From contig CM059431.1 of assembly GCA_030390025.1 (NCBI GenBank), forward strand, positions 125,428,001-125,492,000: a stretch of 64,000 bases of DNA, read 5' to 3'. The notes below the pieces were generated by a model, which saw only the letters and a program-made list of their open reading frames with translations, was not told where the DNA came from and did no database searches. Below, in pieces: positions 8,759 through 58,443 of this stretch. A program made the translations under genes and the position numbers. Position 1 is the first letter of the stretch; every line of letters starts with the position of its first letter. Source of the DNA: Squalus acanthias (Eukaryota).

Positions 8759-10196
8759 TGTAAGGGATGACCTGCGGCTCTGTGCTTAGCCTGGGTGCTA
8801 GGGCGGGGTTAGGCCTTGTTGCCTGTTCTGGTCTCCAGCCAGCCTGATAACACTAGTCACCTGTGAGTGGTTCGACCCACTCGCCCTTATGGTTCTGACA
8901 CTGGACTTAGGTGCGAGAGCAATAATGCAGAGAAAGACTCAGGTAGACCCGGTTGAATAGTGCGAAATGGAAAATCTTTATTGCATATTATTCAAGATTA
9001 TGAGATACATGTCATAAGCATAGATTAATGACAGTACAATCTTACACACAGTTATGAAACTAATTTTAGGGAAACGAGGAGCGCATGACACATCGTAAAA
9101 GGGGACACACATTATAATTATCCTTAAAACTTAAACCCTCCCCTATCAATACCTGTCCTAATCTAGATTTGTAGGATCGAGACTCATGCTCACCACTCGT
9201 GATAACTCGGAGAATTCCGAAACTCTGCTCGGATGGTTTTACCGCAGCACCTGACTATCCACGTGTTGATCAGGGGTCTCTGTACCCCACTTGTTTACTC
9301 GTTTCTGCTCCGGCTAGCAGGCTGGACCGTCTGCTGTCATGAAGATCTGTGTTGCCCTCGGAGTTCGGACACCACTCGAAAAAGAGTCTTCCTGTGCCCT
9401 ACACCAGTTGCCTGTAGAACTCAAAGAAGGGTCTTCCTAGGCCAGTTGTGGAGTAGCCGATAAAATTCAAAGCCACGAGGTTGATCCTAGCGGATCAGAG
9501 TCCAGAGCCGTCAGGCAAGAGAATAAAAGTTCAGCAGCCTTCCAGCGAGTCAAAGCAGCAAGAGAAAGATGGACGGTTGTACCTTACAGTTATAGTGCTG
9601 TAATTCCTCTTTTCCCACCCAATCTTAATGTCTATCTTTTGTCAGGGTTTTGGCGCTCAAACTTCTTGTATGGGGTGATCTCAGTCTTTAATGGGTTTCG
9701 GTGACACTTATAACTGTCTGAGTACCCATTAATATTTCTCCCATTGTGGAACCGGCTAGTAGTCTCCTTGGAGGGGTTTTGGGGCTTCCAAATGCTTGCT
9801 GTAAGTACCTGCAAACGGCTCTCTCATCGTAGAGCCGTGGTGATTTTGCATATTAATGTCTTTGGATGGGTCCTTGATCGCTCAGTACAATAGCCCTTGT
9901 TTGCACCTGGGAGACCGATTCCAGTATTTATGTTTAAAATGCAAACCCATCATGTCTTGGCAATTATCTCAAATGTGCTGAGTCCTGTTCGATCTTGCTG
10001 AAATGTTTATTGGAACGCCATCTTGTCTGCCCACTGAAAGTCTAGAACTTTCTGCCACGAGGCGTGGCGGCCATTTTACAGGCTGTTTGTGTCCGTTTTG
10101 AAACCTGACAGCATTCTGCTGAAATAAAGCTGTTTGTACGAAACTTTATGTCTCCTTCTTATTTTATAAAATCGCGATAATTTTGCGAATTCTACA
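8759..10196 (-). mobile_element. Solo LTR of the loki-like retrovirus family (divergent variant)
   Basis: Termini TGTAGAATTCGC...ATCCCTTACA (minus strand) as in the provirus LTRs. 4-bp TSD AGGA at 8755-8758 and 10197-10200. Splits the H1 transposase. Confidence 0.92.
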
Positions 10197-16062: not shown

Positions 16063-17380
16063 GTAATCAAGGGCCCATCCAAAAGACATTAATATGTAAA
16101 ATCCCAACGACTCTACGATGAGAGAGCCGTTAGCGGGTAGTTATACAAAACACTTGGAAGCCCCAAAACCCCTCCAGGGAGAACACCGACCGATTTAACA
16201 ATGGGAGAAATATTAACAGGTACTCAGACAGTTACGAGTAGCCCCGAAACCCATTAAGAACGGAGATCACCCATACAAGACATTTGAGCGCCAAACCCAA
16301 ACAAAAGAAAGGACATTAAGGTTGGGCGGGAAACGGAAGATTTTGTACTATAATTACAAGCTCCAACCGTCCATCTCTCTCTTATTCTCTTATCCGATCG
16401 ACTCGTAACCTCGTGGCTGCTCCTGTGTTTTGACTCGTAGTCTTGTTCCTGCTTGCCTGGTGCCTCTTTGAAAAAGACTGTTGAACTTTCTGATCCGTTC
16501 GGATCTACCTCGTGTCGCGTAACGAAGACCTGTATTGGTAACCGGTATCGGAACCAAAGGCCCGAGATGAGATGAGATGAGATGAGATGAGAAGAGAGGA
16601 AGACCATACTCATCGCCACGGTCAGTAAATCCCGACCGCGCCCGTAGGTCGAATAGCCAAGTTTTCCTTGCCAGGAAGACTTCTTTGAACTTGCAAGAAC
16701 GGATTATCACCGATGATATTGACTGGTCTGGATTCGGACAGTGCCTGTTAAACCAACCAACACAGATCTTCATCACAGCAGACGTTCTAGCCTGCTAGCC
16801 GGAGCAGAAGCAAGTAAACAAGTGGGACCAGGAGATCTCCTGATCGACACGTGGGTGCTGCGGTGAAAAACATCTGATCAGCTATTCGGAATTTCTCCGA
16901 GTTATCACGAGTGGTGAGCATGAGTCTCGAATTCCTACGAATCTAGCTAGGACAGATATTGATAGGGGAGGGTTTAAGTATTAAGGATACTTGTAATGTG
17001 TGCCCCTATTTACGGTGTGTCGTTCGTTCCTCGTTTCCCTAGGATCAGCTATATAACTGCTTGTAAGATTGTACTGTCATTAATCTGTGCTTATGACATG
17101 TATTTCGTAATCTTAAATATCATGCAATAAAGATTTTCCATTTCGTACCATTCAACCGAGTCTACATGAGTTTCATCTCCATTACTGCTCTCGCATCTAA
17201 GTCCAGTGTCTAGAACCGTAAGGGCGAGTGATTCGAACCACTCACAGGTGTGTCTAGTGCTCCCAGACTGGCTGGAGACCAGAACAGGCAACAAGGCCTA
17301 AACCCGCACTGACATACAGGCTGCACAGAGCCGCGTGAATCTCACAGGCTGCGAGACACGCAGGGTCAGAATCCCTTACA
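16063..17380 (+). mobile_element. 5'-truncated LTR of the same retrovirus family, very close to the LTR at 54946-56630
   Basis: Aligns to 55263-56630 and ends ...ATCCCTTACA. No PBS follows. About 315 bp of the U3 end and the TSD are missing. Confidence 0.9.
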
Positions 17381-22517: not shown

Positions 22518-23119
22518 GTGTACAAGGCTCAGCAAGACCCAAAAGCTAAAATGTACAGCCTGCCCACTCCTAGATGAACCTTTAAATGCAATGTGGCTAA
22601 GGGTCCTTTAAATATCCCGAGTGGAAATGAGTCATCAATGATGTCATCAGACCCACACCATGTAATAGGGCTGGGAAACACGCTGGCCTGACTTAATAGG
22701 CGCCATTACGGGAAAGTCACTCTGAGGAGCGTAATGAAAAGAACAACGGAGCTGATAAGTCCCCGGGTCCTGATGGACTTCATCCTAGGGTCTTAAAAGA
22801 AGTGGCTAGTGAGATAGTTGATACGTTGGTTTTAATTTTCCAAAATTCCCTAGATTCGGGGAAGGTTCCATTAGATTGGAAAATAGCGAATGTAACTCCT
22901 TTATTCAAAAAGGGAAGGAGACAGAAAGCAGGAAACTACAGGCCAGTTAGCTTAACATCTGTCATAGGGAAGATGTTAGAAGCTATTATTAAAGACGTTA
23001 TAGCAGGGCATTTAGAAAAGTTCAAAGTAATCAGGCAGAGTCAACATGGTTTTGTGCAAGGGAAATCATGTTTAACCAATTTATTGGAGTTCTTTGAGGA
23101 AGTAACATGTGCTGTGGAT

Positions 23120-24716
23120 TGTAAGGGATACTCTCCTGACCCTGCGTGTCTCGTGGCCTGTGAGGTTCACGCGGCTCTGTGCAGCCTGTATGTCAGTGCG
23201 GGTCTAGGCCTGGTCTCCAGCCAGTCTGGGAACACTAGACACCCCTGTGAGTGGTTCGAATCACTCTCCCTTACGGTTCTAGACACTGGACTTAGATGCG
23301 AGAGCAGTAATGGAGATAAAAACTCATGTAGACTTGGTTTGAACGGTACGAAATGGAAAATCTTTATTGCATGATACTTAAAATTATGAAATACATGTCA
23401 TATGCACAGATTAATGACAGTACAATCTTACAAACAGTTATAATCACTCTTAGGGAAACGAGGAACGACCAGCACAACGTAAATAGGGCACACATTACAA
23501 ATATCCTTAAACTTTAAACCCTCCCCTATCAATAACTATCCTAAAACTAGCTTCGTAGGATCCCGAGACTCATGCTCACCACTCGTAATAACTCGGAGAA
23601 AATCCCGAATAGCTGATCGGATGTTTTTCACCGCAGCACCCACGTGTTGGTCAGGAGATCTCCTGGTCCCACTTGTTTACTGCTTCTGCTGCTCGGTCAG
23701 TCGGCTGGACCGTCCGCTGTAGTGAAGACCTCTGTTGGTTGGATACAGGGTATGGTGGAGCACCGTTGTCAATATCGCTGATACGATGTGTTTGCACAGT
23801 CCAGTTATCATCGATGCAATATGTCTTGTTAAAGAAGAAAACTTCCTGTCGAGAAGACTTGGCTGATCGACCTACAGGCGCGGTCGGGATTTACTGACCG
23901 TGGCGATGGATAAGGTCTTCTTCTCTTCTCCTCTCATCTCATCTCATCTCATCCCGGGCCTTCGGTTCCGCTGCCAGCTACCAACATAGGTCTTTGCAAC
24001 AGTCTTTTACCCAGGAGCAGCCACGATGATAACAGCAGCAAGCGGCAAGAGTCAAGAGCAAAAGAGCAAGAGTCACGAACACGAGGCAAGAGAGCGAATG
24101 GACGGTTTGGGCCTGCAATTATAGTGCACAGTTCTTCCGTTTCCCGCCCAACTACAATGTCCATTCTTTTGTTTAAGGTTTGGCGCCCAAAAATGTCCTG
24201 TATGGGTGATCTCTGTCCTTAATGGGTTTCGGGGCTACTCCTGAATGTTTGAGTACCTGTTAATATTTCTCCCATTGTCAAATCGGTCGGTGTTCCCCCT
24301 GGAGGGGTTTGGGGCTTCCAAGTGTCCTGTATAACTACCTGCTAACGGCTCTCTCATCGTAGAGCCGTTGGGAGTTTACATATTAATGTCCTTTGGATGG
24401 GCCCTTGATGGCTTTCCTTTGTACCTGGGAGACCGATCCCAGTATCGATGTTTATACTGTAAACCCATAATGTCCTGTGTATTGTCTTCACTGTGCTGAA
24501 TCGTTATCGATCCTGCAAAAAAATGTTTATTGGAACGCCATCTTGTCTGCCTGCCGAAAAGTCTCGAATGTTCTGTCACGCGGTGCGGCGGCCATTTTAC
24601 AGGCTGCTTGTGTCCAATTTAAACCTGACAGCATTCCGCTGAAATAAAAGCTGTTTTGAACGAAACTTGTGTTTTCTCCTTATAAAAATGAAATCGCGAT
24701 AATTGCGAATTCTACA
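23120..24716 (-). repeat. 3' LTR (1597 bp)
   Basis: Appears identical to 34095-36131 apart from the SINE. AATAAA on minus at 23363-23368. (GAGAT)n microsatellite near 23930. Confidence 0.95.
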
Positions 24717-24728
24717 GTCCCTCCTGTT
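24717..24728 (-). other. Polypurine tract
   Basis: AACAGGAGGGAC abuts the TG of the 3' LTR. Confidence 0.75.
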
Positions 24729-25140
24729 GATGCGAATAACTCCGCTTATCGTATCAAAAACTCAGTGGTGAGCAATCTTATCTCGATTTCACTCCGAATC
24801 CAGTAAATTAATCCCATAAAATTTTAACTTCACTAGGGTCTCTGTGTCGTCCTTATTTCCCAAGAAAATCACACTTTATATCACCATAGGCATCATTTGC
24901 CCTTAAACTTACACCACTTGTTTTCCTTCCCGGCGTAACCAGGCCGATACCTCACGCATCACCTGTATATTTATCTTTTATTCAAGGGAAGGAAAAACAA
25001 AACCCAAAAAACCAAACAATCAACACCATCACCAAAATAAACAAATCCCGACTCTTAAACATGTCGAGTTTCCAACGTATTTACACTGAGTACAAACTTC
25101 CGCGGCGCACGTGGCGAGCGGGAGTGACGCCGTTTTCCCA

Positions 25141-27492
25141 TTACACTGCGCTCTCATCGTGCACGCGCACGTAACGTTCTCGCCACTCTCCCGTGTTCTC
25201 ATGCTTGGTGAGGCGCTTGTCTCTTTTACAATGTATGAACAAAAGGTATACTACAATAAACACTTGACAGACGACTAAAATGTGGGAGGCTATTCTGACC
25301 CATGAGGGCACTTCAATATTCGTGAACAGATTCCACCACGGTGGAACCACTATGTCCAAAATGTCTGTACCTATCTCGACGGTTTTCTGTTCTAATGTAT
25401 AGAAATGCTTTTGTGACACCGCGACGGCTTTCAGAAGTTTGGTTAAATGCTCGGGGAGAGGGGGAATGAGGTACCCAAAATGTGCGACAAATCGCTGCAA
25501 GTCGGTAAAATTCTCTTTTACTGTGAGATGAACAGTGGATGGTTCAGGGATTGGGATAATTCGCTGTTGTGCTACTTGAACTTCAGCCCTGGGTTTAAAA
25601 CAGAAACTGCTGTCACTCACCGGACACCGGCTACGGTTTCCATGCTGGTAGTGTTGCGCTGCAGTGGTAACACAATATGTTCCACCCCCGATGTATGCTA
25701 CCTGCGGAGGCACATGATCTTGTGCCATTGCCTCCATGGTGCAATTCATGGACTTGGCGTCAGCCGTTCTGAACCCGCACTGTGGTGTTAAAAAGGCATT
25801 CAAGTGCTGGGGGCACAGTATTATGTGTGCTCCCCTGCCACGACAACCAGAGAGATCTGTACCTGTCATCGTTTGCTCCCAGCGGATGACGTAAGGTGGA
25901 ACCGCTGCATAACGAATGTGGGCTCCCCCCTGAATGACACCAATGTTCTCTACCCGATATACCGGGGCGGGCTTTGCTGTGTTGCCCAAAACCGGCATGC
26001 GTAATACTATTCCCATAATAGTATGGTTTGAACGTCCGCAGTCCACGGGGACTGGGTAAGCTTCTGAAGCTAGCCTGAGCTGGCACGGACTTAATGCATT
26101 CTGAAAAGGGTGGAGCGCCCGCAGGTGTTTGTTACTTATCCAGGACGGGACCAAACCTTGTTTTAAATCCTCCAAATTACTGCGGCCCTCGCCCAGTAAC
26201 CACGCCCCGTAAAGCACGCACACCTCGTTCTGCGCAGCTTGATCGGATGCATTCCGATCTTCCCTAATCAGGGCATTTACCGTACGCGCATGTTTCTCCA
26301 GCTCTGCTATAATCTCTTTTAAATGTAGTGTCATGGCTTGGTCCTCGTGCAGACCCGACCCTACCACTTTATTCTCATCTGTAAGAATATCCTTTAACTG
26401 TGTTTTTAAACCATTAATCTGGGTCTGCAGCTCCACACTGTCTAGAGCGTTGACCACAGATGTCCCTGTGTTAAAAGCAGTGAACGCATCGTTCACCAAA
26501 CCCCTTCTTTGCCTCCCTACTTGGTCCAAAACTTCCTGCGGTGCGGTGTATAAACTTGTCTTATCGATTTCTGCAAAATCAAACTCGTAAAATTGCCTGA
26601 ACATCTTGGTCAACAGGACCTGGTACAACTGTTCCGTCTTTTTGGGGCACCACTCTGGTAACCGTACCTCAGTGAGATTTAAAATCACCGAGGCCACCGC
26701 GTAATGTACCCCCTGAAATAGTATCTGGTCTGTGGGGACCAGTACCAAACCGTTCCCGGGTCCCTTACTAGTTTTAGGGCACCCTTCTTCCTCAGTTAGA
26801 ACTACCGGAATCGTGGGCGGGGCTTTGCGTGGGCGCGTAATGAGCTCAGTGGCATTTACTGGGATCGGAGAGTATGGGGCTCCGCACCCCCTGGTGCTCG
26901 CATCCCACCTCATCCCCTGTCCGTTATCCTGCCACTGGTTAATAAAGAATATGGAGATGCCTTTGGGGCAAACGTACTTTGACCCCCACATACAAACATA
27001 AATCCCCTCATCTGGTTCCCACCATTTGTCCCAACAGACTTTCACTTGTCCATCTGTCCCCGTAATTGTCCGATGGGTATTATTACCCAGTCGCTCCCAC
27101 TCAACCGAAGAGTTCCTCATAGTTTTGCTCAGCTTTCGCAGCCACCACCATCGGCTCAATGGGACATTCCCACTGCAGGTCAAACAAATCCGTTTGCCGA
27201 CGGTGACGCTGATCCTGGGTGCGATAATCCGTACTTTGGGGCACATTAAAGAAGTCTCTCTGTAGGCGAACCCCGATGTGCTGGAATACTCCGTTGAGTT
27301 CGTTCCCAGCCATCCTGGCCACCTTCCCTTGTGGAAGTAGGTGCTGGTCCCTTCTGCCTTCCGTCTTCCGGTCCCATCCACCGCGATGGGGGCCGTGTCC
27401 CCGGAACATCCAAACACCACGACATCCTTGGTGAGGCCCCGATAGGCCAATCCACATCCGATTGCCACGAGCAAAACTAGAAGTCGTTCCAT
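25141..27492 (-). CDS. env: Envelope glycoprotein, 783 aa, intact: signal peptide, Ig-like domain, F-like class I fusogen, TM
   Basis: Hydrophobic N-terminus, furin site RQRR/GLV (aa 327-330), heptad repeats, Cys-rich region, TM (ILVVCQVFIVVYLLFI), several NxS/T sequons. Candidate splice acceptor TCTATCTGATCACAG|G lies 13 nt upstream of the ATG. Confidence 0.9.
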   Translation of the reverse strand: MERLLVLLVAIGCGLAYRGLTKDVVVFGCSGDTAPIAVDGTGRRKAEGTSTYFHKGRWPGWLGTNSTEYSSTSGFAYRETSLMCPKVRIIAPRISVTVGKRICLTCSGNVPLSRWWWLRKLSKTMRNSSVEWERLGNNTHRTITGTDGQVKVCWDKWWEPDEGIYVCMWGSKYVCPKGISIFFINQWQDNGQGMRWDASTRGCGAPYSPIPVNATELITRPRKAPPTIPVVLTEEEGCPKTSKGPGNGLVLVPTDQILFQGVHYAVASVILNLTEVRLPEWCPKKTEQLYQVLLTKMFRQFYEFDFAEIDKTSLYTAPQEVLDQVGRQRRGLVNDAFTAFNTGTSVVNALDSVELQTQINGLKTQLKDILTDENKVVGSGLHEDQAMTLHLKEIIAELEKHARTVNALIREDRNASDQAAQNEVCVLYGAWLLGEGRSNLEDLKQGLVPSWISNKHLRALHPFQNALSPCQLRLASEAYPVPVDCGRSNHTIMGIVLRMPVLGNTAKPAPVYRVENIGVIQGGAHIRYAAVPPYVIRWEQTMTGTDLSGCRGRGAHIILCPQHLNAFLTPQCGFRTADAKSMNCTMEAMAQDHVPPQVAYIGGGTYCVTTAAQHYQHGNRSRCPVSDSSFCFKPRAEVQVAQQRIIPIPEPSTVHLTVKENFTDLQRFVAHFGYLIPPLPEHLTKLLKAVAVSQKHFYTLEQKTVEIGTDILDIVVPPWWNLFTNIEVPSWVRIASHILVVCQVFIVVYLLFIHCKRDKRLTKHENTGEWRERYVRVHDESAV

Positions 27493-27775
27493 CCTTCCTT
27501 GGTTCCTGTGATCAGATAGAATGAGGTAGCCAGCCTCGCAAAAAGTCTCTGGCTTTTGTGAAGGGTGAGCGGGTCCCCTGACCTCGCCTCACGTAAACTT
27601 CAACGTTTGCTAAATAGACTTCCTCTAAACCTAGCCTTAAAACTCCCATCATTTTATCGTTATCTGTTAAAACACTACAAACTTAACCTTCTTAAAACTA
27701 CTTAAAACTTTAAACTAAAACTTAAAACCTTAAACTAATAACTTTACAATGCCGCCCGTTCTCAGGGCGGCCCCT

Positions 27776-30700
27776 TTAAATCCTGAGAAGGCTGCTGCGA
27801 GCTCTTCCCGACGGTGGGAGGGCACTGACCCTTCCCTCTGATCTGCCGCAGCCTGTTGCTGCGCTGACCCTTTCCTCTGATCTGCCGCAGCCTGTTACTG
27901 CTTCGATGTGGCCTGTCTCTACCCGGGTTATCTTAACCTGAAACTTACGCCCTGGGGCAGCCTGTGGACCTGACCACGTCTTCCTGGGCTGGGGTACTCT
28001 GCTTGACCTACGGGGAATTGCTATGGGCGGGGGCTCCGTGACGGACGGACCGGGTCCCGAGACCTTCAACGGGATGACCTGGGGTTCCATCACAGGCGCC
28101 AGCCCCGCCTCCGCTGACTCCGCCTCCCTAACCTCGGGGCTGGCAGTTCGGGGCCCCGCCCTGCTCGGCCCAGCAGGCGGCCCTTCACTCGCGAACTCTG
28201 CCTCCCCTGAGGACTGGACGTTCAGAGCGGGCGGCCACACCTCTGGGAACCACATAGCGGCTGGCCCGGCCTCCTCTAGCTCCTTCCTCCTGCTGTCGGG
28301 ACCTGCAGCTTGTGTGTCCACCCCGTATGGATCTCTACCTAGCGGCCCCAATCCTTCCAGACCGTTCCTCTGAAACCACCCGTCATCATCACTATGCTCA
28401 TCTGCACTATCCTCATCTGACCAGGGTACCCTGGGGTCCTCGTCATCTAACCCCCAACTCCAGAAAAACGCTGCATGATCGTCCGGGATGTCCCTTCCCC
28501 TGATGCAAGCTGCTACGCCTGCCTGTGTGCCTTGTGGTCCTACCTGGGGCTGTGTTTTCCCATTGGCGGGATTTACCCCTGTAGTTTTCCCTTGCGCACC
28601 CGGCTGGTACAGTTTACATTGGTTTATGTGGAACCACTTAGTGCGCCGAGGTACTTTTACGGCGTAAACCATGGGACTCGCCTTGTCTACAATGTTGTAG
28701 GGTCCCATATACAGTGGTTCCAGACTCCCTACTCTGGCGTAGTTTCTGACCATGACCTGGTCTCCTACTTCCCACTCCCGCGTTTTGCGGGGTTCCAGCA
28801 ACAAGCGATTGCCCTGGTGCTGCCTTCCCATGTTCCCAGCCGCCTGCTCATAAACTTGCTTCAGGCGCTCCAAGAGAGTTTGGGCGAACTTGTCCCTGCT
28901 GATCTCTTGAAGCTGACCCTCAGTGAGCACCGGGGCTAGCACATGGGTGGGGGTTCGCATGAGCCTGCCGGTCATTACCTCGTGCGGGGAGTACCCCGTA
29001 CTTTTTGACTGACTGGCCCGGACCCCCATGAGGACTAAAGGCAGAACTTCCGCCCATTTTTGGGGCGAGTTCCTAGTCTCTTTCCTCAATTTCTCCTTCA
29101 GGGTCCGGTTCATACGTTCAACAATCCCGGATGACTTGGGATTGTGTGCTACGTGCCACTTCCCTTCAATGCCCAAAAGCATGAGGGTGTTCTGCATCAC
29201 CTGGCCGGTGAAATGACTCCCTTGGTCTGACTCCACGAAACGGGGGAGTCCCCACCGCGAGAACACTTCCCGGACCAAGATTTTTGCTGTACCCAGTGCC
29301 GTAGCTGTTCGACAAGGGAAGGCTTCCACCCACTTGGAAAACACATCCACCAGGACGAGGCAGTACTTATAACCTCCCTGGGTGGTGGGCAGGGGTCCTA
29401 TATAGTCGATCTGTATCGACTGCCATGGTCCCTCTACCCTTCTTACGTGTCCCATGGGCACCTTCCTTTTCTGGGGGTCTGGGTTGTTTGCAGCGCACAC
29501 AAGACAGTTTGCACAGAACTCGCGGACTTGTTCCCTGAGCCCTGGCCACCATCCCGCTTGCTCTACCCGTTGCCAGGTAACCTCGGGCCCGGGGTGCCCT
29601 GCCCCTGGTCCCTCGTGAGCCAACTGGAGGAATTCCCTCCTGTGCTGCTGCGGCACAACCCACTGCTCCTCGCGGAACAGCATGCCTTCCTTAACTGAGA
29701 GGGTTGCCGTACTGTACGGACCTTCTACCTGCCTCCCCTCAGCAATCGTTTTTAGGACTGCTTTTAGGGCGGGATCCTGGGCTTGGACGGTCTTAAGGTC
29801 TAGGGGCAATGCTACCCTGGTGTTCCCGGTATTCCCGTCCCCACCTCGGACCGCTGCTATGGGTCCGGTTCTATAGGGGTTCCAGAAAGTACCGTCGCGG
29901 GCACCCTCCCTGGCTAGCGCATCCGCCTGCCGGTTGCCCTCCCCACGGGGCTCTGTGGAGGAGTGAGCTTTCACCTTATGGATGAAAATCTCCCCTTCCT
30001 CCCCTACTGCTGCTGCTAAGATCTTCTCCAGCAAGGGCTTTACCGTTAAAGGTCGCCCGTCCGCGGAGGTGTATCCACGGCGGGACCAAATGGCCAGGTA
30101 TTCCGTACACGAATTGCAGGTGAACATACTGTCCGAGCAAATCGTGTATGGGGTTGGGAAAATGTCTGGGTGGGTTACCACGTACACCACGGCAGACAGC
30201 TCAGCCTGCTGCGCGCTCATGGTGCTAGGGAGCTTGATCGCCAGGGCAAGGTCTGCCGCAGGGTCATAAACTCCACACCCTGTGAGTCGCTCGCCAGCAG
30301 ATACTGTGCTAGACCCATCAACATAAATCTCGCGCCCAGTGGGATGTATCCCGGCCCGTAAACCTATGTTGACGTCCCACACCCCCTCCACCGAACACCG
30401 GTGGGCTGTACCGGGGTATACCAAATTGGCCGCAAGCCTGGGCTCGCAAAGACCTTTTACTCTGATGTCCAACTGGGAGAGAAGAAGGGTCCAACGCGCA
30501 ATGCGTGCGCTGCTTACGGTCCCGTCTTTAATCCTCCCATCCAGAAGCATCTTAGTTGGTGTGTGATGTGTGAGGAGAGTGATGGGAGAGAGCCCTGTGA
30601 AGATCGCTGATCTTTTCACAGCCCAATGCGTGGCTAAAAGGTGCCTTTCGCAATTGGAAAAACTTCTCTCCACATCCGTTAATACCCTGGATGAATAGAC

Positions 30701-32278
30701 AACCGGCCTCAGCTTGCCGTGACGCTCTTGGAGCAGCACGGCGCTTAAGCTGTCTCCGCTGGCAGCTACCTCCAGGAAAAACTCCTTCCCCCCATCTATG
30801 GCCCCTAAGGCTGGCGCGGTCTGCAGATCCCTTTTTAACTTCTCGAAGGCTGCTTGGCAGCCCTCGTCCCAAAGCCACTCTACTCCCTTATGGAGGAGTC
30901 GGAGGAGCGGTGCCGCTGTGGCCGCATAATCCTCGATAAAATCCCTGCAGTAACCGGTCAGTCCCAAGAAGGACCTCACACCCCTTACGTTGTTGGGAAT
31001 CGGTAATTCTTGCACCGACTCCCTCCTTGCTTTGTCTATGGCTCTTTCCCCAGCGCGTAGGGTCAGTCCCAGGAATTTTACTTCCTGCTGACCGATACGT
31101 GCTTTCTTTGGGTTTACTTTAAAACCCTTTCTCGCTAACAGCTCCAATAACTCGTCCAGCAGTGGTCCGTGCTCCTCCCTTGAGTCCGTAAATAGGAGCA
31201 AATCATCCACATACTGTACTATCTGATTGGGCTGACTAAACTCCTTTAAACTTCCTGCCATACACTGGTGAAAAATACTGGGGCTATTGTGGAAACCTTG
31301 TGGCAAGCAGTTCCACGTGTACTGTTGCCCTTTAAACGTAAAGGCAAACTTGTACTGGTCCTCTCGCCGCAGCGGGATGGACCAAAAACCGTTCGAGATA
31401 TCCAGCACCGTGAACGTGGTCGCGGACGCTGGGATGCTCCCTATTAGGTCAGCAACTGCTGCTACTGTGGGCGCGCAGGCGGGGATGTTACTGTTAAGGA
31501 CTCTGTAGTCCACCGTGGCTCTCCACGAATTATCCGGCTTCCTAACCGGCCATAATGGGGAGTTCACGTGTGTGGCTATCGGCCTCAACACGCCCTGCTG
31601 CACCAAGGAAGACATTGCTGCCTCCATATCGGGTTCTGCTTCTTTGGGGAAGTTATACTGCTTTTGGGGTCGGGTCATGGGGTCCCCATCTACGCTGACC
31701 TCAAACCCGACCACCCTCCCACAATCGTGCTTGTGGGTTGCAAACGCGTGCATATTATCTGTCACGTACGTTTGCATGTCCGTTGGGACATCTGCGACCA
31801 TAAGCCTGAGGTCGTAGCCTCCGGATGGCTGTACGGTACACAGGACCCCTGTTTCTTCCTCCCCTTGAATTACCATTACCTCGCCTTTTTCCCCTTTAGC
31901 CCCCCAGAGACAGTGATTTCTGAGGTCCACGAGGATCCCGTGTCCCGCTAGCAGATCGGACCCGAGAATACCTCTTCCACCCCCCTTTTGCCATGCCATC
32001 AGTATACACTTCCACTTAAGGCGAAGTGTCCCTAAACGAATGGATAGCGGGAGGGAAAACGTGCCAGCCTGTTCTTTCCCTGTGAACCCTGCTAGCGTGA
32101 ATGGGACCTTGGTAGATAGCGGCGAGTCAAAAGGGTCATCTGTATGGATTATGGTGCAAGAAGCTCCCGTGTCCAACAAATAACTGCCCTTTTGTTTCTC
32201 TACCTCCATCTCCACCACAGGTCACCTCCACGCATCATAGCTGAGCGGACACAGGTAGACGGGCTGTGCTGGTTCTAG
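27776..32278 (-). CDS. pol: Pol (PR-RT-degenerate RH-RNase H-IN plus long C-terminal tail), in frame with gag. One extra TGA at 32222-32224; open from 32218
   Basis: LLDTGAS; LPQGF, YVDDLL; IYVDGSS/SAQQAEL/CSDS/GNRQAD; HHCC zinc motif; IDYIG, ESDQG, VERMNRTLK; GPY. Confidence 0.93.
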
Positions 32279-34090
32279 TCATGGGGCACTATTAGACGGT
32301 CCTGCGGCACCTACGGGGCCGGTTGCGACCGCCACCTGTCCACGCGCATTCAAAACCATCTTGCGCATGACTCCTAACACTGCCTCGAGGTCTTCGGGAG
32401 AGGTGGGTGCCTTTGCTTCCTTAGCCGGGACAGGCGCCTGGGCTCGGACCGCGGGATTTTTATCCTTGGAATCCTTCCAAGGGTTCCTGCAGTGCTTGCG
32501 CCAGTGCCCTGTCTTCCCACACCCGTAACAGGCATTACTTGCCTGTGGGGCGCGATTACCCTCCTGATGCCACTCTCTTTGAGCCGGGGCTGCGGGTCGT
32601 ACCTCATGTACTCTTCCCTTAAAGGGACGTGTTGCCATACCCCTTATGTTACGGTAACCTAACGTGAGTCGATTCAAGACCGACTCTTCCGTAAGGTTGA
32701 GGTCATTGGGATCGAACCAGGCTTTTGCCTGCTCTCTAACGGCTGGTAAACTGTTGGCTATTATGCACCTAAGCCAATGAATTAAAGCGGCGCCTTCCAC
32801 ATCTTCGCGCTCGGGCGCACCTAGACAGCTGCGCTCATATACTGGCCACAGCCTGTCGGCAAAAACCTTCGGGGGTTCTCCCTCCATCTGCACTGTCTGT
32901 CCCACTCTAGCAAACGGACCTCCGTCGTTCGCTCCCACTACTTCTAGGACCTCATTTTTCAATTCCTCATAACTTTTATTACCCCTCTTGCTATCGCCTG
33001 AGAGACACTGAAGGACCGAGCTATCTAATGAGAACAGCAGCATTTTTGCTGTCTCCCCATCATCGCAGCCGTTGATGGCTGCGGCTTGCTCAACTTCCCT
33101 AAAATGTACGGAAGGGTCGTCTATCTCGGTCAGCTTCCTTACGTGGTTTATCATAGCCCTCAGCTGATGTGAACTGTGAGGCAACACCAGCTGTCCGAGG
33201 AGATCCCCCGGTTCTTCCCCACCGTTTCTGCTTGGGCCCCTTTTAATCCCCGTTACTGGATACAACGATCCCTTTTCTACCTCCTTTTCAACGGGCTCTT
33301 TTGTTTCTTCCGTTGCTTCCTCCCTAACCCAGGTTTCTGAATAGCTGGGTGGCGCGGAGGGCGCAGTGGCTACTACCTCTTCTGCTTTACTTGGTGGGGA
33401 ATTTCTAAATCTCTCATTTACTAGCGGCTGGCGTGCCGACGGATTAATAAGGCACACCATGCCGTTCGCATTATTCACGGCCTTTTTGAGGCTCTCTATC
33501 TCTTTTTCGCAGGCGCTATGGTCGGCTCCCTGAAACTTATCCTCAAGGGCCAACTTATACGCCGACCTAACCCCCATTAAGCTCTCTTCTTGAGTTCTTA
33601 TCTGGGCAGCTTGACGGTTACATCTTTCCTTCATCCTACTCTCGTTTAATTTTGCTTCAGTGATCTGGCACTCGAGATACTCTACCCTTGTTTTAAGGTA
33701 ACTGGAGACTTCCTGGCTTTCCTGGCGTAACTCATTTAAACTCTTAATGAGCGCCTCCCCTCCAGAAACCTTCTCCTCCATTTCCTCCTCTAACTGCTTG
33801 ATTCGAGCGGTTAGCGCTGTATTGGTCTGGTTTGAAATCTGAACCTGCCTTTTGTAGCACATAAGCCAGACTGCTTTCTCAACTGCCTTTTTATGCTCCT
33901 TACTATCCGTCCACCTTTCAGCTGCCTCTAGTGGGCTCTTATCCGCTAACAGTTCGCTTATCCACTTTTTCGTTAGATTAACCTTTCCAAATACGTAATC
34001 CGCTATCTTTTCCTGCATCACATTTCGTACAGTCATTCCAAAATCTAACACACTACCCTCTCGCTGCCAGTGTCCTGCCGCGGTCGCCAT
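32279..34090 (-). CDS. gag: Gag, 603 aa: coiled-coil N-terminal half, late motif, capsid-like region, one CCHC zinc knuckle
   Basis: CYGCGKTGHWRKHC knuckle, PSAPPSY motif, position between PBS and pol. Close paralog at 56635-58443. Confidence 0.9.
   Translation of the reverse strand: MATAAGHWQREGSVLDFGMTVRNVMQEKIADYVFGKVNLTKKWISELLADKSPLEAAERWTDSKEHKKAVEKAVWLMCYKRQVQISNQTNTALTARIKQLEEEMEEKVSGGEALIKSLNELRQESQEVSSYLKTRVEYLECQITEAKLNESRMKERCNRQAAQIRTQEESLMGVRSAYKLALEDKFQGADHSACEKEIESLKKAVNNANGMVCLINPSARQPLVNERFRNSPPSKAEEVVATAPSAPPSYSETWVREEATEETKEPVEKEVEKGSLYPVTGIKRGPSRNGGEEPGDLLGQLVLPHSSHQLRAMINHVRKLTEIDDPSVHFREVEQAAAINGCDDGETAKMLLFSLDSSVLQCLSGDSKRGNKSYEELKNEVLEVVGANDGGPFARVGQTVQMEGEPPKVFADRLWPVYERSCLGAPEREDVEGAALIHWLRCIIANSLPAVREQAKAWFDPNDLNLTEESVLNRLTLGYRNIRGMATRPFKGRVHEVRPAAPAQREWHQEGNRAPQASNACYGCGKTGHWRKHCRNPWKDSKDKNPAVRAQAPVPAKEAKAPTSPEDLEAVLGVMRKMVLNARGQVAVATGPVGAAGPSNSAP
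34072..34089 (-). other. Primer-binding site, tRNA-Arg(TCG)
   Basis: TGGCGACCGCGGCAGGAC is complementary to the 3' 18 nt of vertebrate tRNA-Arg-TCG (…GTCCTGCCGCGGTCG-CCA, recalled from memory). It starts 5 nt after the LTR end. Confidence 0.85.
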
Positions 34091-34094
34091 TTTC

Positions 34095-36131
34095 TGTAAG
34101 GGATACTCTCCTGACCCTGCGTGTCTCGTGGCCTGTGAGGTTCACGCGGCTCTGTGCAGCCTGTATGTCAGTGCGGGTCTAGGCCTGGTCTCCAGCCAGT
34201 CTGGGAACACTAGACACCCCTGTGAGTGGTTCGAATCACTCTCCCTTACGGTTCTAGACACTGGACTTAGATGCGAGAGCAGTAATGGAGATAAAAACTC
34301 ATGTAGACTTGGTTTGAACGGTACGAAATGGAAAATCTTTATTGCATGATACTTAAAATTATGAAATACATGTCATATGCACAGATTAATGACAGTACAA
34401 TCTTACAAACAGTTATAATCACTCTTAGGGAAACGAGGAACGACCAGCACAACGTAAATAGGGCACACATTACAAATATCCTTAAACTTTAAACCCTCCC
34501 CTATCAATAACTATCCTAAAACTAGCTTCGTAGGATCCCGAGACTCATGCTCACCACTCGTAATAACTCGGAGAAAATCCCGAATAGCTGATCGGATGTT
34601 TTTCACCGCAGCACCCACGTGTTGGTCAGGAGATCTCCTGGTCCCACTTGTTTACTGCTTCTGCTGCTCGGTCAGTCGGCTGGACCGTCCGCTGTAGTGA
34701 AGACCTCTGTTGGTTGGATACAGGGTATGGTGGAGCACCGTTGTCAATATCGCTGATACGATGTGTTTGCACAGTCCAGTTATCATCGATGCAATATGTC
34801 TTGTTAAAGAAGAAAACTTCCTGTCGAGAAGACTTGGCTGATCGACCTACAGGCGCGGTCGGGATTTACTGACCGTGGCGATGGATAAGGTCTTCTTCTC
34901 TTCTCCTCTCATCTCATCTCATCTCATCCCGGGCCTTCGGTTCCGCTGCCAGCTACCAACATAGGTCTTTGCAACAGTCTTTTACCCAGGAGCAGCCACG
35001 ATGATAACAGCAGCAAGCGGCAAGAGTCAAGAGCAAAAGAGCAAGAGTCACGAACACGAGGCAAGAGAGCGAATGGACGGTTTGGGCCTGCAATTATAGT
35101 GCACAGTTCTTCCGTTTCCCGCCCAACTACAATGTCCATTCTTTTGTTTAAGGTTTGGCGCCCAAAAATGTCCTGTATGGGTGATCTCTGTCCTTAATGG
35201 GTTTCGGGGCTACTCCTGAATGTTTGAGTACCTGTTAATATTTCTCCCATTGTCAAATCGGTCGGTGTTCCCCCTGGAGGGGTTTGGGGCTTCCAAGTGT
35301 CCTGTATAACTACCTGCTAACGGCTCTCTCATCGTAGAGCCGTTGGGAGTTTACATATTAATGTCCTTTGGATGGGCCCTTGATGGCTTTCCTTTGTACC
35401 TGGGAGACCGATCCCAGTATCGATGTTTATACTGTAAACCCATAATGTCACGGTGGCATAGTGGTTAGCACTGGTGCTTCACAGCGCCAGGGACCCGGGT
35501 TCGAATCTGGACTCGGGCGACTGTCTGTGTGGAGTTTGCACATTCTCCCCGTGTCTGCGTGGGTTTCCTCCGGGTGCTCCGGTTTCCTCCCACAGTCCAA
35601 AAATGTGCGGGTTAGGTTGATTTGGCTATGATAAATTGACCCTTAGTGTTAGGGGGGGATTAAATATGTGGGGTTACGGGGATAGGATGGGATATGTTAG
35701 GGGGAATTAAATACGTGGGGTTACGGGGATAGGGTGGGATATGTGTTGGTGCAGGCTCGATGGGGATTCTGTGTGAGAAAAGCAGGGACAGGGTACTGCA
35801 TTTGGATGATCAGCCATGATCGTATTGAATGGTGGAGCAGGCTCGACGGGCCGAATGGCCTACTCCTGCTCCTAGTTTCTATGTTTCTATGTTTCTATGT
35901 CTTCACTGTGCTGAATCGTTATCGATCCTGCAAAAAAATGTTTATTGGAACGCCATCTTGTCTGCCTGCCGAAAAGTCTCGAATGTTCTGTCACGCGGTG
36001 CGGCGGCCATTTTACAGGCTGCTTGTGTCCAATTTAAACCTGACAGCATTCCGCTGAAATAAAAGCTGTTTTGAACGAAACTTGTGTTTTCTCCTTATAA
36101 AAATGAAATCGCGATAATTGCGAATTCTACA
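34095..36131 (-). repeat. 5' LTR (2037 bp including an inserted SINE)
   Basis: Same sequence as the 3' LTR on both sides of 35450-35900. Confidence 0.95.
35450..35900 (+). mobile_element. tRNA-derived V-SINE (HE1-like) with CR1-derived tail
   Basis: A box TGGCATAGTGG, B box GGTTCGAATC, V-domain TGTGTGGAGTTTGCACATTCTCCCCGTGTCTGCGTGGGTTTCCTCCGGG, CR1 3' UTR and (ATGTTTCT)n tail. Confidence 0.9.
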
Positions 36132-37536
36132 GGATAAAGGGGAGCCGGTGGATGTACTGTACTTAGATTTCCAGAAGGCATTTGATAAGGTGCCACATCA
36201 AAGGTTATTGTGGAAAATAAAAGCTCATGGTGTAGGGGGTAACATATTGGCATGGATAGAAGATTGGCTAGCTAACAGGAAACAGAGAGTAGGCATAAAT
36301 GGGTCATTTTCTGATTGGCAAGATGTAACAAGTGGTGTGCCACAGGGATCAGTGCTGGGGCCTCAACTTTTTACAATTTATATAAATGACTTGGATGAAG
36401 GGACCGAAGGTATGGTTGCTAAATTTGCTGATGACAGAAAGATGGGTAGGAAAGTAAATTGTGAAGAGGACATAAGGAGGCTACAAAGGGATATAGATAA
36501 GTTAAGTGAGTGGGCAAAGATCTGGCAAATGGAGTATAATGTGAGAAAATGTGAAGTTGTCCATTTTGACAGGAAGAATAAAAAAGAAGCATATTATCTA
36601 AATGGTGAGAGATTGCAGAGCTCTGAGATGCAGAGGGATCTGGGTGTCCTAGTACATGAATCGCAAAAGGTTACTATGCAGGTACAGCAAGTAATTAAAA
36701 GCTAATAGAATGTTATCGTTTATTGCGAGGGGAATTGAATACAAAAGTAGGGAGGTTATGCTTCAGTTATACAGGGCATTGGTGAGACCACATCTGGAGT
36801 ACAGTGTACAGTATTGGTCTGCTTATTTAAGGAAGGATGTAAATGCAGTTCAGAGAAGGTTTACTAGACTAATACCTGAAATGGGCGGGTTGTCTTATGA
36901 GGAAAGTTTGGACAGGCTAGGCTTGTATCCGCTGGAGTTTAGAAGATTAAGAGGTGACTTGATTGAAACATATAAGATCCTGAGGGGTCTGGACAGGGTG
37001 GATGTGGAGAGGATGTTTCCTCTTGTGGGAGAATCTAGAACTAGAGGTCACTGTTTAAAAGTTTAAGGCAGAGATGAGGAGAAATTTTTTCTCACAGAGG
37101 GTCGTGAGTCTTTGGAACTCTCTTCCTCAGAGGGCGGTGGAAGCAGAGTCTTTGAATATTTTTAAGGCAGAGGCAGATAGATTCTTGGTAAGCAAGGGGG
37201 TGAAAAGTTATCGGGGGTAGGTGGGAATGTGGAGTAATCGGATCAGCCATGATCTTATTGAATGGCGGAGCAGGCTCGTAGGGCCCAGTGGCCTACTCCT
37301 GCTCCTAATTCGTATGTTCGTATCCCGATCCACCACACCAACCACCCGCTCCCGACCCGCCCAGGTAAAGAAAATTCCGGCCATGGAGTTTGAAGTAGTC
37401 GTAATGAACAGTCAGTTTACTTACAATATGATGAATCACCCCGAATCCTCAAATTTAAAAACAATATGGTCAAATTTAATGATCCTGCCAGGCAGGAAAT
37501 GGGTGGCAGTGGGTTGGCTGCCCAGTTTATACACTG

Positions 37537-54945: not shown

Positions 54946-56630
54946 TGTAGAATTCGCAATATATCGCGATTTTATAAATAAGGAGAAAACACAGAGTCTC
55001 GTTCAAACAGCTTTTATTTCAGCAGAATGCTGCCAGGTTGTTCAAAGTGGACACAAGCAGCCTGTAAAATGGCCGCCGCACCTCGTGACAGAACATTCTA
55101 GACTTTTCGACAGGCAGACAAGATGGCGTTCCAATAAACATTTGTGCAAGATCGATTAAGATTCAGCACAGTGAAGATAATACACGAGACATTATGGGTT
55201 TGCAGTATACACATAAATACTGAAATCGGTCTCCCAGGTACGAATGAAAGCTATTGTACCGAGTAATCAAGGGCCCATCCAAAAGACATTAATATGTAAA
55301 ATCCCAACGACTCTACGATGAGAGAGCCGTTAGCAGGTAGTTATACAAAACACTTGAAGCCCCAAAAACCCCTCCAGGGAGAACACCGACCGATTTAACA
55401 ATGGGAGAAATATTAACAGGTACTCAGACATTTACGAGTAGCCCCGAAACCCATTAAGAACGGAGATCACCCATACAAGACATTTGAGCGCCAGACCCTA
55501 ACAAAAGAAAGGACATTAAGGTTGGGCGGGAAACGGAAGATTTTGCACTATAATTGCAGGCTCCAAACCGTCCATCTCTCTCTTATCCTCGTGGCTGCTC
55601 CTGTGCTCTTATTCTCTTATCCGATCGACTCGTAACCTCGTGGCTGCTCCTGTGTTTTGACTCGTAGTCGGGTTCCTGCTTGCCTGGTGCCTCTTTGAAA
55701 AAGACTGTTGAACTTTCTGATCCGTTCGGATCTACCTCGTGTCGCGTAACGAAGACCTATGTTGGTAACTGGCAGCGGAACCAAAGGCCCGAGATGAGAT
55801 GAGATGAGATGAGATGAGATGAGATGAGATGAGAAGAGAGGAAGACCATACTCATCGCCACGGTCAGTAAATCCCGACCGCGCCTGTAGGTCGAATAGCC
55901 AAGTTTTCCTTGCCAGGGAGACTTCTTCGAACTTGCAAGAACGGTTCATCATCGATGATATTGACTAATCTGTGAACCCGGCTCGGAAAAGTACCTGTTA
56001 AACCAACCAACACAGGTCTTCATCACAGCAGACGGTCCAGCCTGCTAGCCGGAGCATAAGCAAGTAAACAAGTGGGACCAGGAGATCTCCTGACCGACAC
56101 GTGGGTGCTGCGGTGAAAAACATCCGATCAGCTATTCGGAATTTCTCCGAGTTATCACGAGTGGTGAGCATGAGTCTCGAAATCCTACGAATCTAGTTAG
56201 GACAGATATTGATAGGGGAGGGTTTAAGTATTAAGGATACTTGTAATGTGTGCCCCTATTTACGGTGTGTCGTTCGTTCCTCGTTTCCCCAGGATCAGCT
56301 ATATAACTGCTTGTAAGATTGTACTGTCATTAATCTGTGCTTATGACATGTATTTCATAATCTTAAATATCATGCAATAAAGATTTTCCATTTCGTACCA
56401 TTCAACCGAGTCTACATGAGTTTCATCTCCATTACTGCTCTCGCATCTAAGTCCAGTGTCTAGAACCGTAAGGGCGAGTGATTCGAACCACTCACAGGTG
56501 TGTCTAGTGCTCCCAGACTGGCTGGAGACCAGAACAGGCAACAAGGCCTAAACCCGCACTGACACACAGGCTGCACAGAGCCGCGTGAATCTCACAGGCT
56601 GCGAGACACGCAGGGTCAGAATCCCTTACA
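54946..56630 (+). repeat. 5' LTR of provirus 2 (1685 bp)
   Basis: Conserved termini. AATAAA at 56376-56381. TATA-like candidates at 55549 and ~56300. (GAGAT)n at 55791-55830. Confidence 0.93.
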
Positions 56631-56634
56631 GAAA

Positions 56635-58443
56635 ATGGCGACCGCGGCAGGACACTGGCAGCGAGAGGGTAGTGTGTTAGACTTTGGAATGACTGTACGA
56701 AATGTTATGCAGGAAAAGATAGCAGATTATGTGTTCGGAAAGGTTAATCTAACTAAGAAATGGATAAGTGAATTGTTAGCGGATAAAAGCCCGCTAGAGG
56801 CAGCCGAAAGGTGGACAGATAGTAAAGAACATAGAAAGACACTCGAGAAAGCAGTCTGGCTTATGTGTTACAAAAGGCAGGTTCAGATTTCAAACCAGAC
56901 CATTACAGCGCTAGTAGCTCGAATCAGTCATTTAGAGGGAGAAATGGATGAGAAGGTTTCTGGAGGGGAAGTGCTCATTAAGAATTTAAGTGAGTTGCAC
57001 CAAGAAAGCCAGGAAATCTCCAGTCACCTTAAAACAAGGATAGATTATCTCGAGTGCCAGGTCACTGAGGCAAAGTTAAATGAGAGCAGGTTAAAGGAAA
57101 GATGTGGCCGCCAAGCTGCCCAGATAAGAACTCAGGAAGAGAGCTTAACGGGGGTTAGGGCGGCATATAAGTTGGCCCTTGAGGATAAGTTTGAGGGAGC
57201 CGACCATAGCGCCTGCCAAAGGGAGATAGAGAACCTCAAGAAGGCCGTAAACAAAGCGAACGGCATGGTGTGCCTTATCAGTCCGTCAGCACACCAGCCG
57301 TTAGTAGGTGAGAAGTTTAAGAAATCCCCACCAAGTAAAGCAGAGGAAGTAGTAGCCACTGCGCCCTCCGCGCCACCCAGCTATTCGGAAACCTGGGTAA
57401 GGGAGGAAGCAATGGAAGAAACGAAAGAGCCCATTGAGAAAGAAGTGGGAAAGGGACCATTGTATCCAGTAACGGGTATTAAAAGGGGCCCAAACAGAAA
57501 CGGTGGGGAAGAACCAGGGGATCTCCTCGGACAGCTTGTGTTGCCTCACAGCTCACACCAGCTGAGAGCTATGATAAATCACGTACGGAAGCTGACCGAG
57601 TCAGACGACCCTTCCGTACATTTCAGAGAAGTTGAGCAAGCCGCAGCCATTAACGGCTGCGATGATGGGGAGACAGCAAAAATGCTGCTGTTCTCATTAG
57701 ACAGCTCGGTCCTTCAGTGTCTCTCGGGCGAGAGCAAGAGGGGAACCAAGACTTATGAGGAATTAAAGAATGAGGTCCTGGAAGTGTTGGGGGCGAACGA
57801 TGAAGGTCCGTTTGCTAGAGTGGGACAGACAGTGCAGATGGAGGGAGAACCCCCAAAGGTTTTTGCCGACAGGCTGTGGCCAGTATATGAGCGCAGCTGT
57901 CTAGGTGCGCCCGAGCGCGAAGATGTGGAAGGCGCCGCTTTAACTCATTGGCTTAGGTGCATAATAGCCAACAGTTTACCAGCCGTCAGAGAGCAGGCAA
58001 AAGCATGGTTTGATCCCAATGACCCCAACATTACGGAAGAGTCGGTCTTGAATCGACTCACGTTAGGATATCGCAATATAAGGGGTATGGCAACACGTCC
58101 CCTTAAGGGAAGAGTACATGAGGTACGACCCGCAGCCCCGTATCAAAGAGAGTGGCATCAGGAGGGTAATCGCGCCCCACAGGCAAGTAATGCTTGTTAC
58201 GGGTGTGGGAAGACAGGGCACTGGCGCAAGCATTGCAGGAACCCTTGGAAAGATTCCAAGGATAAAAATCCCGCGGTCCGAGCCCAGGCGCCTGTCCCGG
58301 CTAGGGAAGCTAATGCACCCACCCCTCCCGACGACATCGAAGTAGTGTTAGGAGCCATGCGCAATCTCTTGAGTGCACGTGGACAGGTGGCGGTCGCAAT
58401 CGGCCCCGTAGGTGCCGCAGGACCGTCTAATAGTACCCCATGA
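56635..58443 (+). CDS. gag: Gag, 602 aa, intact
   Basis: Colinear with 32279-34090. Has PSAPPSY and the CCHC knuckle, and ends TGA-CTAG. Confidence 0.9.
   Translation: MATAAGHWQREGSVLDFGMTVRNVMQEKIADYVFGKVNLTKKWISELLADKSPLEAAERWTDSKEHRKTLEKAVWLMCYKRQVQISNQTITALVARISHLEGEMDEKVSGGEVLIKNLSELHQESQEISSHLKTRIDYLECQVTEAKLNESRLKERCGRQAAQIRTQEESLTGVRAAYKLALEDKFEGADHSACQREIENLKKAVNKANGMVCLISPSAHQPLVGEKFKKSPPSKAEEVVATAPSAPPSYSETWVREEAMEETKEPIEKEVGKGPLYPVTGIKRGPNRNGGEEPGDLLGQLVLPHSSHQLRAMINHVRKLTESDDPSVHFREVEQAAAINGCDDGETAKMLLFSLDSSVLQCLSGESKRGTKTYEELKNEVLEVLGANDEGPFARVGQTVQMEGEPPKVFADRLWPVYERSCLGAPEREDVEGAALTHWLRCIIANSLPAVREQAKAWFDPNDPNITEESVLNRLTLGYRNIRGMATRPLKGRVHEVRPAAPYQREWHQEGNRAPQASNACYGCGKTGHWRKHCRNPWKDSKDKNPAVRAQAPVPAREANAPTPPDDIEVVLGAMRNLLSARGQVAVAIGPVGAAGPSNSTP
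56636..56653 (+). other. Primer-binding site, tRNA-Arg(TCG)
   Basis: TGGCGACCGCGGCAGGAC, identical to the PBS of provirus 1. Confidence 0.85.

Follow-up and report, generated by a model that had tools for sequence, protein, structure and literature searches.

A predicted F-type envelope protein with a probable Ig-like head in a young, likely SnRV-like endogenous retrovirus of the shark Squalus acanthias

Envelope glycoproteins (Env) of the F type have been reported for lokiretroviruses, foamy viruses and invertebrate errantiviruses, as described in the accessible parts of the respective papers (PMC7947760; PMC11468914; 10.1101/2023.10.26.564294; PMC9040795; PMC12583693). Wang and Han, in the available text of their study, left open whether the F-like Env was gained by lokiretroviruses only or is ancestral (PMC7947760), and the structures of foamy Env, as far as the accessible text describes them, later linked a true retroviral lineage to F (PMC11468914). 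The errantiviral proteins, which belong with baculovirus F (PF12259; 10.1101/2023.10.26.564294, available portion), share with the Env described here the F fold, the furin site and the fusion peptide in an LTR element, but their carriers are Ty3/gypsy elements of invertebrates, whereas the Pol of the present element falls among vertebrate retroviruses. A survey of anamniote Env proteins screened, according to its accessible text, gamma- and beta-type Env only (10.1101/2021.11.23.469661). Lokiretroviruses were recorded in none of six chondrichthyan genomes in the available part of the Wang and Han study (PMC7947760), and SnRV-like endogenous retroviruses are known, from the accessible text of three reports, in elephant shark, coelacanth and amphibians (PMC4422223, PMC4977317, PMC12193657), the Gag of SnRV being described in a further partly available paper as carrying a coiled coil and one zinc finger (PMC2717909). 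Literature searches whose scope ended at subscription papers and closed preprint supplements returned no report that the SnRV clade has an F-type Env or that such an Env carries an Ig head, and the accessible portions of PMC12440569, PMC11089739, PMC13709493 and PMC10435555 contain nothing on either point.

The window, a stretch of 64,000 nucleotides from Squalus acanthias, was found by ORF listing to contain a minus-strand env frame of 783 aa plus stop, running from an ATG at 27492 to a stop at 25141 (Table 1). The reading preferred here, with a probability of roughly 0.8, is that this Env serves a young SnRV-like endogenous retrovirus of a cartilaginous fish as its entry protein, that it has the F fold and that it has not been adopted by the host. 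The frame is more than a chance ORF, because its 783 codons are open and 49 homologues were retrieved at E ≤ 0.001 in a search of 1.84 billion representatives; the nearest named ones come from skate (73–75% identity) and sawshark (59–74%), and other sharks and frogs supplied the more remote ones. An earlier, sequence-only reading had placed an F-type Env at 25141–26770, an interval that covers aa ~241–783 but omits the first ~240 aa with the probable Ig-like domain. The features that it named (RQRR at 26514–26503, the following segment, the heptads, the Cys motifs and the TM) were all recovered at their places, its distance of ~400 aa between furin site and TM was measured as 405 aa, and its tail of ~30 aa was counted as 30 aa. 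The TM (aa 735–753, KD19 2.47) is the single strong hydrophobic stretch of the protein, the Cys motifs lie at aa 549–631, the two heptad repeats are ~230 aa apart, and ten N-glycosylation sequons are present. The order of parts is thus basic site, fusion peptide (by position), heptad A, beta domains, heptad B and TM, and the basic cleavage site is common, at the same position, to most of the long homologues. Directly after RQRR follows GLVNDAFTAFNTGTSVVNAL (aa 331–350), whose hydrophobicity reaches the 91st percentile of the Env's own 20-mers; the segment is only moderately hydrophobic, the putative fusion peptide was assigned by position, and its earlier description as fusion-peptide-like holds for its place right after the cleavage site but less well for its hydrophobicity. 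It is also less hydrophobic than the lokiretroviral fusion peptides printed in the part of the Wang and Han supplement that was available. A motif scan of the 783-aa Env found neither CX6CC nor an immunosuppressive-domain (ISD-like) motif. An AG at 27507–27506, 13 nt upstream of the env ATG, marks the candidate splice acceptor.

Table 1. Features of the provirus and its env, with a second copy of the family (positions in the 64,000-nt window).
Feature	Position	Strand	Basis or remark
env ORF, 783 aa + stop	25141–27492	-	ORF listing and translation
Signal-peptide-like N-terminus, aa ~1–18	27439–27492	-	hydropathy only
Probable Ig-like (V/I-set) domain, aa ~87–190	26923–27234	-	weak concordant matches
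F2-like segment, aa 238–330	26503–26781	-	model aligns to F from here onward
Furin-type site RQRR, aa 327–330	26503–26514	-	sequence; kept in most long homologues
Putative fusion peptide, aa 331–350	26443–26502	-	position; moderate hydrophobicity; low pLDDT
Heptad repeat A / long helix, aa 349–444	26161–26448	-	sequence and model helices
Cys-rich beta region (F domains I/II-like), aa 470–650	25543–26085	-	model, structure matches
Heptad repeat B, aa 679–714	25351–25458	-	sequence and model helices
Transmembrane helix, aa 735–753	25234–25290	-	hydropathy
Cytoplasmic tail, 30 aa	25144–25233	-	sequence
Candidate env splice acceptor	27505–27507	-	sequence only
3' LTR, 1597 bp, TGTA...TACA ends	23120–24716	-	self-comparison of window
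Purine-rich tract directly before 3' LTR	24717–24729	-	sequence
5' LTR, split by insertion	34095–36131	-	self-comparison of window
SINE-like insertion (presumed label), 448 bp, LINE-type 3' tail, in place of 8 bp of 5' LTR	35450–35897	+	sequence
Primer-binding-site-like 18-mer	34072–34089	-	5 nt past LTR, overlaps first gag ATG
gag ORF, 603 aa, long coiled-coil region, one CCHC knuckle	32279–34090	-	ORF listing, Pfam
pol frame (PR, RT, tether, RNase H, IN), in frame with gag	27776–32221	-	Pfam
Second in-frame stop, 19 codons past gag stop	32222–32224	-	breaks this copy's gag-pol read-through frame
4-bp target-site duplication, left copy	23116–23119	+	sequence
4-bp target-site duplication, right copy	36132–36135	+	sequence
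Second family copy: LTR, gag, most of pol	54946–62409	+	92% nt identity; broken, truncated, no env

The F-type organisation proposed for this Env was evaluated on a predicted structure, for which aa 225–745 were aligned with 35 database proteins and then folded (pLDDT 68, pTM 0.50). Foldseek searches of the PDB with this model gave 252 matches at E ≤ 0.001, and all of the best 38, which were listed, are paramyxovirus or pneumovirus F proteins, with F of hPIV3 first (E 3.2e-12). When the model was compared with 48,161 representative chains, F or foamy Env took the first 16 places (Z 11.5–6.2), the first unrelated row following at 5.5; among them NDV F gave Z 11.5 (rmsd 18.3, 359 aligned), hMPV F Z 9.0 (rmsd 6.2, 280 aligned) and foamy Env Z 8.3 (rmsd 6.4, 273 aligned). 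Re-alignment to F structures raised Z to as high as 12.7, with postfusion Nipah F at Z 12.0 (rmsd 5.3, 292 residues). The TM-scores are only ~0.4, as is to be expected of a monomer model whose domain placement is uncertain, and the putative fusion peptide has low pLDDT. Among the predicted viral proteins of BFVD, 55 matches were obtained, including lispivirus G, baculovirus F (E 5e-12), respirovirus F, feline foamy Env and two walleye retroviruses. For these two, walleye epidermal hyperplasia virus 1 (WEHV1) and walleye dermal sarcoma virus (WDSV), the predicted Env matches the F-type model at E 4.5e-9 and 4.8e-5, respectively. SnRV Env is absent among the 50 of the 55 BFVD matches listed, which has no bearing on its fold. 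Sequence profiles were less sensitive: Pfam Fusion_gly (PF00523) and Baculo_F (PF12259), the profiles by which the fold had been expected to be confirmed, gave no match at E ≤ 1 for this Env, one homologue matched PF12259 below threshold (E 0.0011), and comparison of solved F proteins with the Env core, by phmmer and with a 36-sequence family profile, gave nothing at E < 0.1. Compared with paramyxovirus and pneumovirus F (PF00523; 1ztm, 3maw, 8dmj, 3rki), the Env is alike in predicted domain topology, in F2/F1 cleavage geometry and in its two heptads, but differs in its 6–17% identity, which is below Pfam detection, in its own N-terminal head and in being encoded by a retrovirus. The conclusion that Env aa ~238–715 has the predicted paramyxovirus/pneumovirus F fold (domains I–III) is well supported, and the organisation put forward in the sequence-only reading is borne out by the structure matches of the model. 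The accompanying argument, that orthoretroviral TM ectodomains are far shorter, needs qualification in view of the two walleye epsilonretroviruses, whose predicted Env matches the same fold.

By analogy with F and foamy Env, whose mechanism is set out in the accessible text of PMC11468914, a spliced env mRNA would encode a type I glycoprotein, which would form trimers and be cleaved behind RQRR. Of the two products, the N-terminal one would comprise the Ig-like head and the F2-like strand with its helix, and the other would be an F1-like TM part. Triggering would cause heptad A to extend and insert the fusion peptide, after which heptad B would fold back and the membranes fuse. The Ig-like head would probably, and this step is proposed more weakly than the others, bind the receptor and trigger the change, as a built-in attachment module replacing the separate attachment protein of paramyxoviruses; N-terminal modules of the coronavirus spike and IgV-like domains of gamma-type Env act in this way (the latter in the accessible text of 10.1101/2024.03.17.585361). 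The Env is plausible as a possible fusogen. It is unlikely that the F-type fold is retained by a protein no longer working as a fusogen, an intact passenger of a family that spreads inside the cell, as could be argued from the polar residues in the putative fusion peptide and from the second copy lacking env; the same polar pattern recurs in shark and frog homologues, the signal start, furin site, cysteines, heptads and TM are all retained, and silent env variants are in excess.

The front end of the Env, ~220 residues long, probably holds an Ig-like domain at aa ~87–190, to which several weak lines of evidence point, none of them significant alone. A B-strand Cys (106), a Trp run (115–117) and a D-x-G-x-Y-x-C motif (161–167) are present, and the B-strand Cys, the C-strand Trp and D-x-G-x-Y-x-C are retained in the four close homologues listed. 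Pfam Ig_3 matched the head with E 0.42 and that of the close homologue P0126 with E 0.0085, the top three rows of a phmmer search of the Env against the PDB were Ig domains (E ~1), and the ESM Atlas neighbours of the head that carry a family label are of Ig type (0.88–0.90). The head model is poor (pLDDT 36) and matches, weakly, almost solely Ig-like sandwiches (Foldseek E 0.02–0.06, Z 5.2). F-type cores with 17–31% identity were found in the shark and frog homologues P0129, P0135, P0151, P0164, P0128, P0139 and P0153, with heads that cannot be aligned with that of this Env. Those of P0129 (by UniRef name), P0151 (V-set, E 0.045) and P0135 (Atlas, 0.90) are Ig-like, those of P0128 and P0139 are Cys-rich, and P0153 has none. 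Profile comparison of the head of this Env with the Chiloscyllium and frog heads gave no alignment, and a common origin of the Ig-like heads is for that reason not established. Foamy Env (8rm0, 8rm1; class Ib fusogens in the accessible text of PMC11468914) is likewise a retroviral Env with a binding module on an F-type core, but its RBD is inserted between the subunits, whereas the additional module is N-terminal here, as in the coronavirus spike, and is preceded by a simple signal peptide. The IgV-like receptor-binding domains of gamma- and alpha-type Env (10.1101/2024.03.17.585361, available portion) are similar in being N-terminal Ig-like modules, while the fusion subunit of gamma-type Env is a short TM with CX6CC and that of this Env is of the F type.

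The element is likely to be an SnRV-like retrovirus, as judged from its sequence relationships; membership in the SnRV clade is likely rather than firm because SnRV is absent from the trees, which were built without SnRV and foamy sequences and with a single loki-type row (Labeo protein P0013). The nearest Pols, labelled NYNRIN-like, are from frogs and coelacanth, with 43–45% identity over RT–RH. An RT motif of the window element is shared with SnRV and absent from the loki rows of the Wang and Han supplement, as available, and a hand count against SnRV RT as printed in the accessible source gave 69 identical residues of 132 positions (~52%). Scanning of IMG/VR for SnRV or relatives returned 0 loci. 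Of the SnRV features, the Gag coiled coil and the single zinc knuckle were found, the coiled coil being judged from weak Pfam coiled-coil matches, and a 3' accessory ORF and a long Env tail were not. In the available descriptions of the SnRV clade (SnRV; CmiERV lineage I; PMC12193657, PMC4422223, PMC4977317), RT, Gag, provirus size and the fish, coelacanth, amphibian and shark hosts are alike, and the Env tail has 136 aa in SnRV against 30 aa here; the present element additionally differs from SnRV in its LTR of 1597 bp and in having no long ORF after env (longest 71 aa).

The element was suspected at first to be a lokiretrovirus, which would be the first in a cartilaginous fish and would make this Env simply a loki Env; this candidate was dropped on the placement in the RT tree and the RT motifs, and it is now considered very unlikely. 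Dual RNase H and an F-related Env are both present, and the nearest Pols, NYNRIN-like by label, come from loki host species. The accessible account of lokiretrovirus Env (PMC7947760) also describes a signal peptide, R-x-K/R-R, fusion peptide, coiled coil, beta region and TM, in the same motif order by eye, with a dual-RNase-H pol. Nevertheless, the nearest Pols depart in their RT and IN motifs from the loki rows of the same species (Loki-Xtr, -Lch and -Rca) in the available part of the Wang and Han supplement, loki motifs being found in P0013, and the RT of the window element is 35% identical to P0013 by BLAST, against 53% to the amphibian/coelacanth group. In the first RT tree, from a quick search, 114 of 117 Pol hits were used, and in the careful tree 31 of the 117, selected by the authors. 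The careful tree grouped the window clade with the other ERVs to the exclusion of P0013 (support 100/97), the quick tree agreed, and a grouping of the window clade with the loki-type P0013 was rejected at p-AU 0.004, a test that used one loki row and a group defined once the first tree had been seen. The RT accordingly lies outside the loki clade as this one row represents it, and the whole loki Envs are printed, in the accessible source, without the ~220-aa head with its probable Ig-like domain.

The preferred reading, a young SnRV-like element, agrees with the state of the provirus around env, which is full length on the minus strand (5' LTR, gag, pol, env, 3' LTR). The two LTRs are identical across 1355 + 234 bp, save for the 448-bp insertion in the 5' LTR, and the insertion of the provirus is very recent, as these identical LTRs indicate. 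Since the SINE-like element, a family label that is our assumption, splits an otherwise identical LTR, host retroposons were active after the very recent provirus insertion, or the assembly homogenised the LTRs; Rfam gave chance matches only for the 448-bp sequence. The provirus lies in a CR1-type LINE, whose RT frame resumes across the insertion. The 18-mer past the 5' LTR presumably resembles a tRNA-Arg primer binding site, tRNA-Arg being the primer of SnRV, and ARAGORN found no tRNA. The first gag ATG overlaps this 18-mer, 5 nt past the LTR, in both copies in the window (34072–34095, minus strand; 56630–56655, plus strand). As no leader separates the primer binding site from gag, the signals for packaging and the splice donor must be located either in the long LTR or within gag. 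A dual RNase H (tether and RNase H) was identified in pol by Pfam, and the pol frame continues for ~270 low-complexity residues beyond the integrase C-terminal domain (28300–27776). The stop following that of gag is absent from the second copy of the element and is due either to damage in this copy or to an error in sequencing; no variant was found at it among the rows listed, which were contigs only.

The second copy, which has a stop at 61498, gave with the first a dN/dS of 0.19 for gag and 0.24 for pol, and these low values therefore speak for constraint on the whole virus. Two LTR-like remnants with ~78–80% identity were seen at 16063–17380 and 8774–10196, and four insertions of the family lie within the 64-kb window. 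The env stretch was present with at least half of its words in 20 of the 24 sequencing runs listed, from 11 studies and 7 organism codes, and none of those with the stretch is recorded as RNA. When four runs were mapped on 22800–34094, none of the 30 bins remained uncovered and variant contigs were numerous (15,054 in one run); what the runs have in common is a set of family variants rather than a single locus. Among the best-supported 40 of 510 variants, which were those listed, 14 lie in env, and 10 of these 14 are silent, against 23–34% expected (p 0.0002–0.004). The excess of silent variants together with the large number of variants is the pattern of a family that depends on Env and has been spreading recently. 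No splice joint to 27505 occurred among the rows listed, which comprise contigs only, two of the mapped runs being RNA by guess only.

Adoption of env by the host, as a syncytin-like or receptor-blocking gene, is the least probable reading and a decidedly remote one, for although some sharks are placental, env is open while the gag-pol frame of this copy has an extra stop, its variants are mostly silent and near-identical env sequences occur in several organisms, the identical LTRs leave no time for host selection to show, gag and pol are also long open frames under constraint, and the runs share a variant family rather than a single locus. The earlier suggestion of a syncytin-like co-option is not supported, given the complete provirus, the identical LTRs and the multi-copy family; a syncytin is recognised by an old, fixed, orthologous locus in a decayed provirus, and here the LTRs are identical and the provirus is complete. 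The Env thus provides no evidence for a shark syncytin. On the preferred reading, the open state of env reflects the short time since insertion and the reliance of the family on Env for its spread, rather than adoption by the host.

An F-type Env on a basal SnRV-like Pol, together with the fold matches of the walleye epsilonretroviruses, adds lineages to the side of an ancestral Env, and the question of an ancestral or a gained Env can be tested in a phylogenetic analysis that treats RT and Env jointly. The probable Ig-like head offers a handle on cell binding by an F-type fusogen without a separate attachment protein. It is tentatively proposed, at odds that for all parts jointly fall somewhat short of even, that SnRV-like retroviruses of sharks, skates and amphibians combine an F-type chassis with N-terminal heads that can be exchanged (an Ig-like one in this Env and in the Chiloscyllium and frog homologues, a Cys-rich one in others and none in a single case), a retroviral counterpart of coronavirus S1 on S2; that, with the loki, foamy and walleye Envs, the F type may be the ancestral vertebrate retroviral Env, which gamma- and beta-type Env would later have supplanted; and that the family may still be entering the germ lines of cartilaginous fish.

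Some further observations concern the database homologues. The shark gene models P0002, P0003 and P0155 join pieces of the Env family to Niban-1-like, zinc-finger and F-box exons, and these fusions are probably prediction chimeras rather than real exonisation. An N-terminal family profile (A3) that matched zinc fingers only was discarded, being contaminated by the zinc-finger columns of a chimeric gene model. The cluster of P0164 (Mantella aurantiaca) has 16 members, mostly full-length at 677 aa, so that a related F-type env has recently expanded in this frog.
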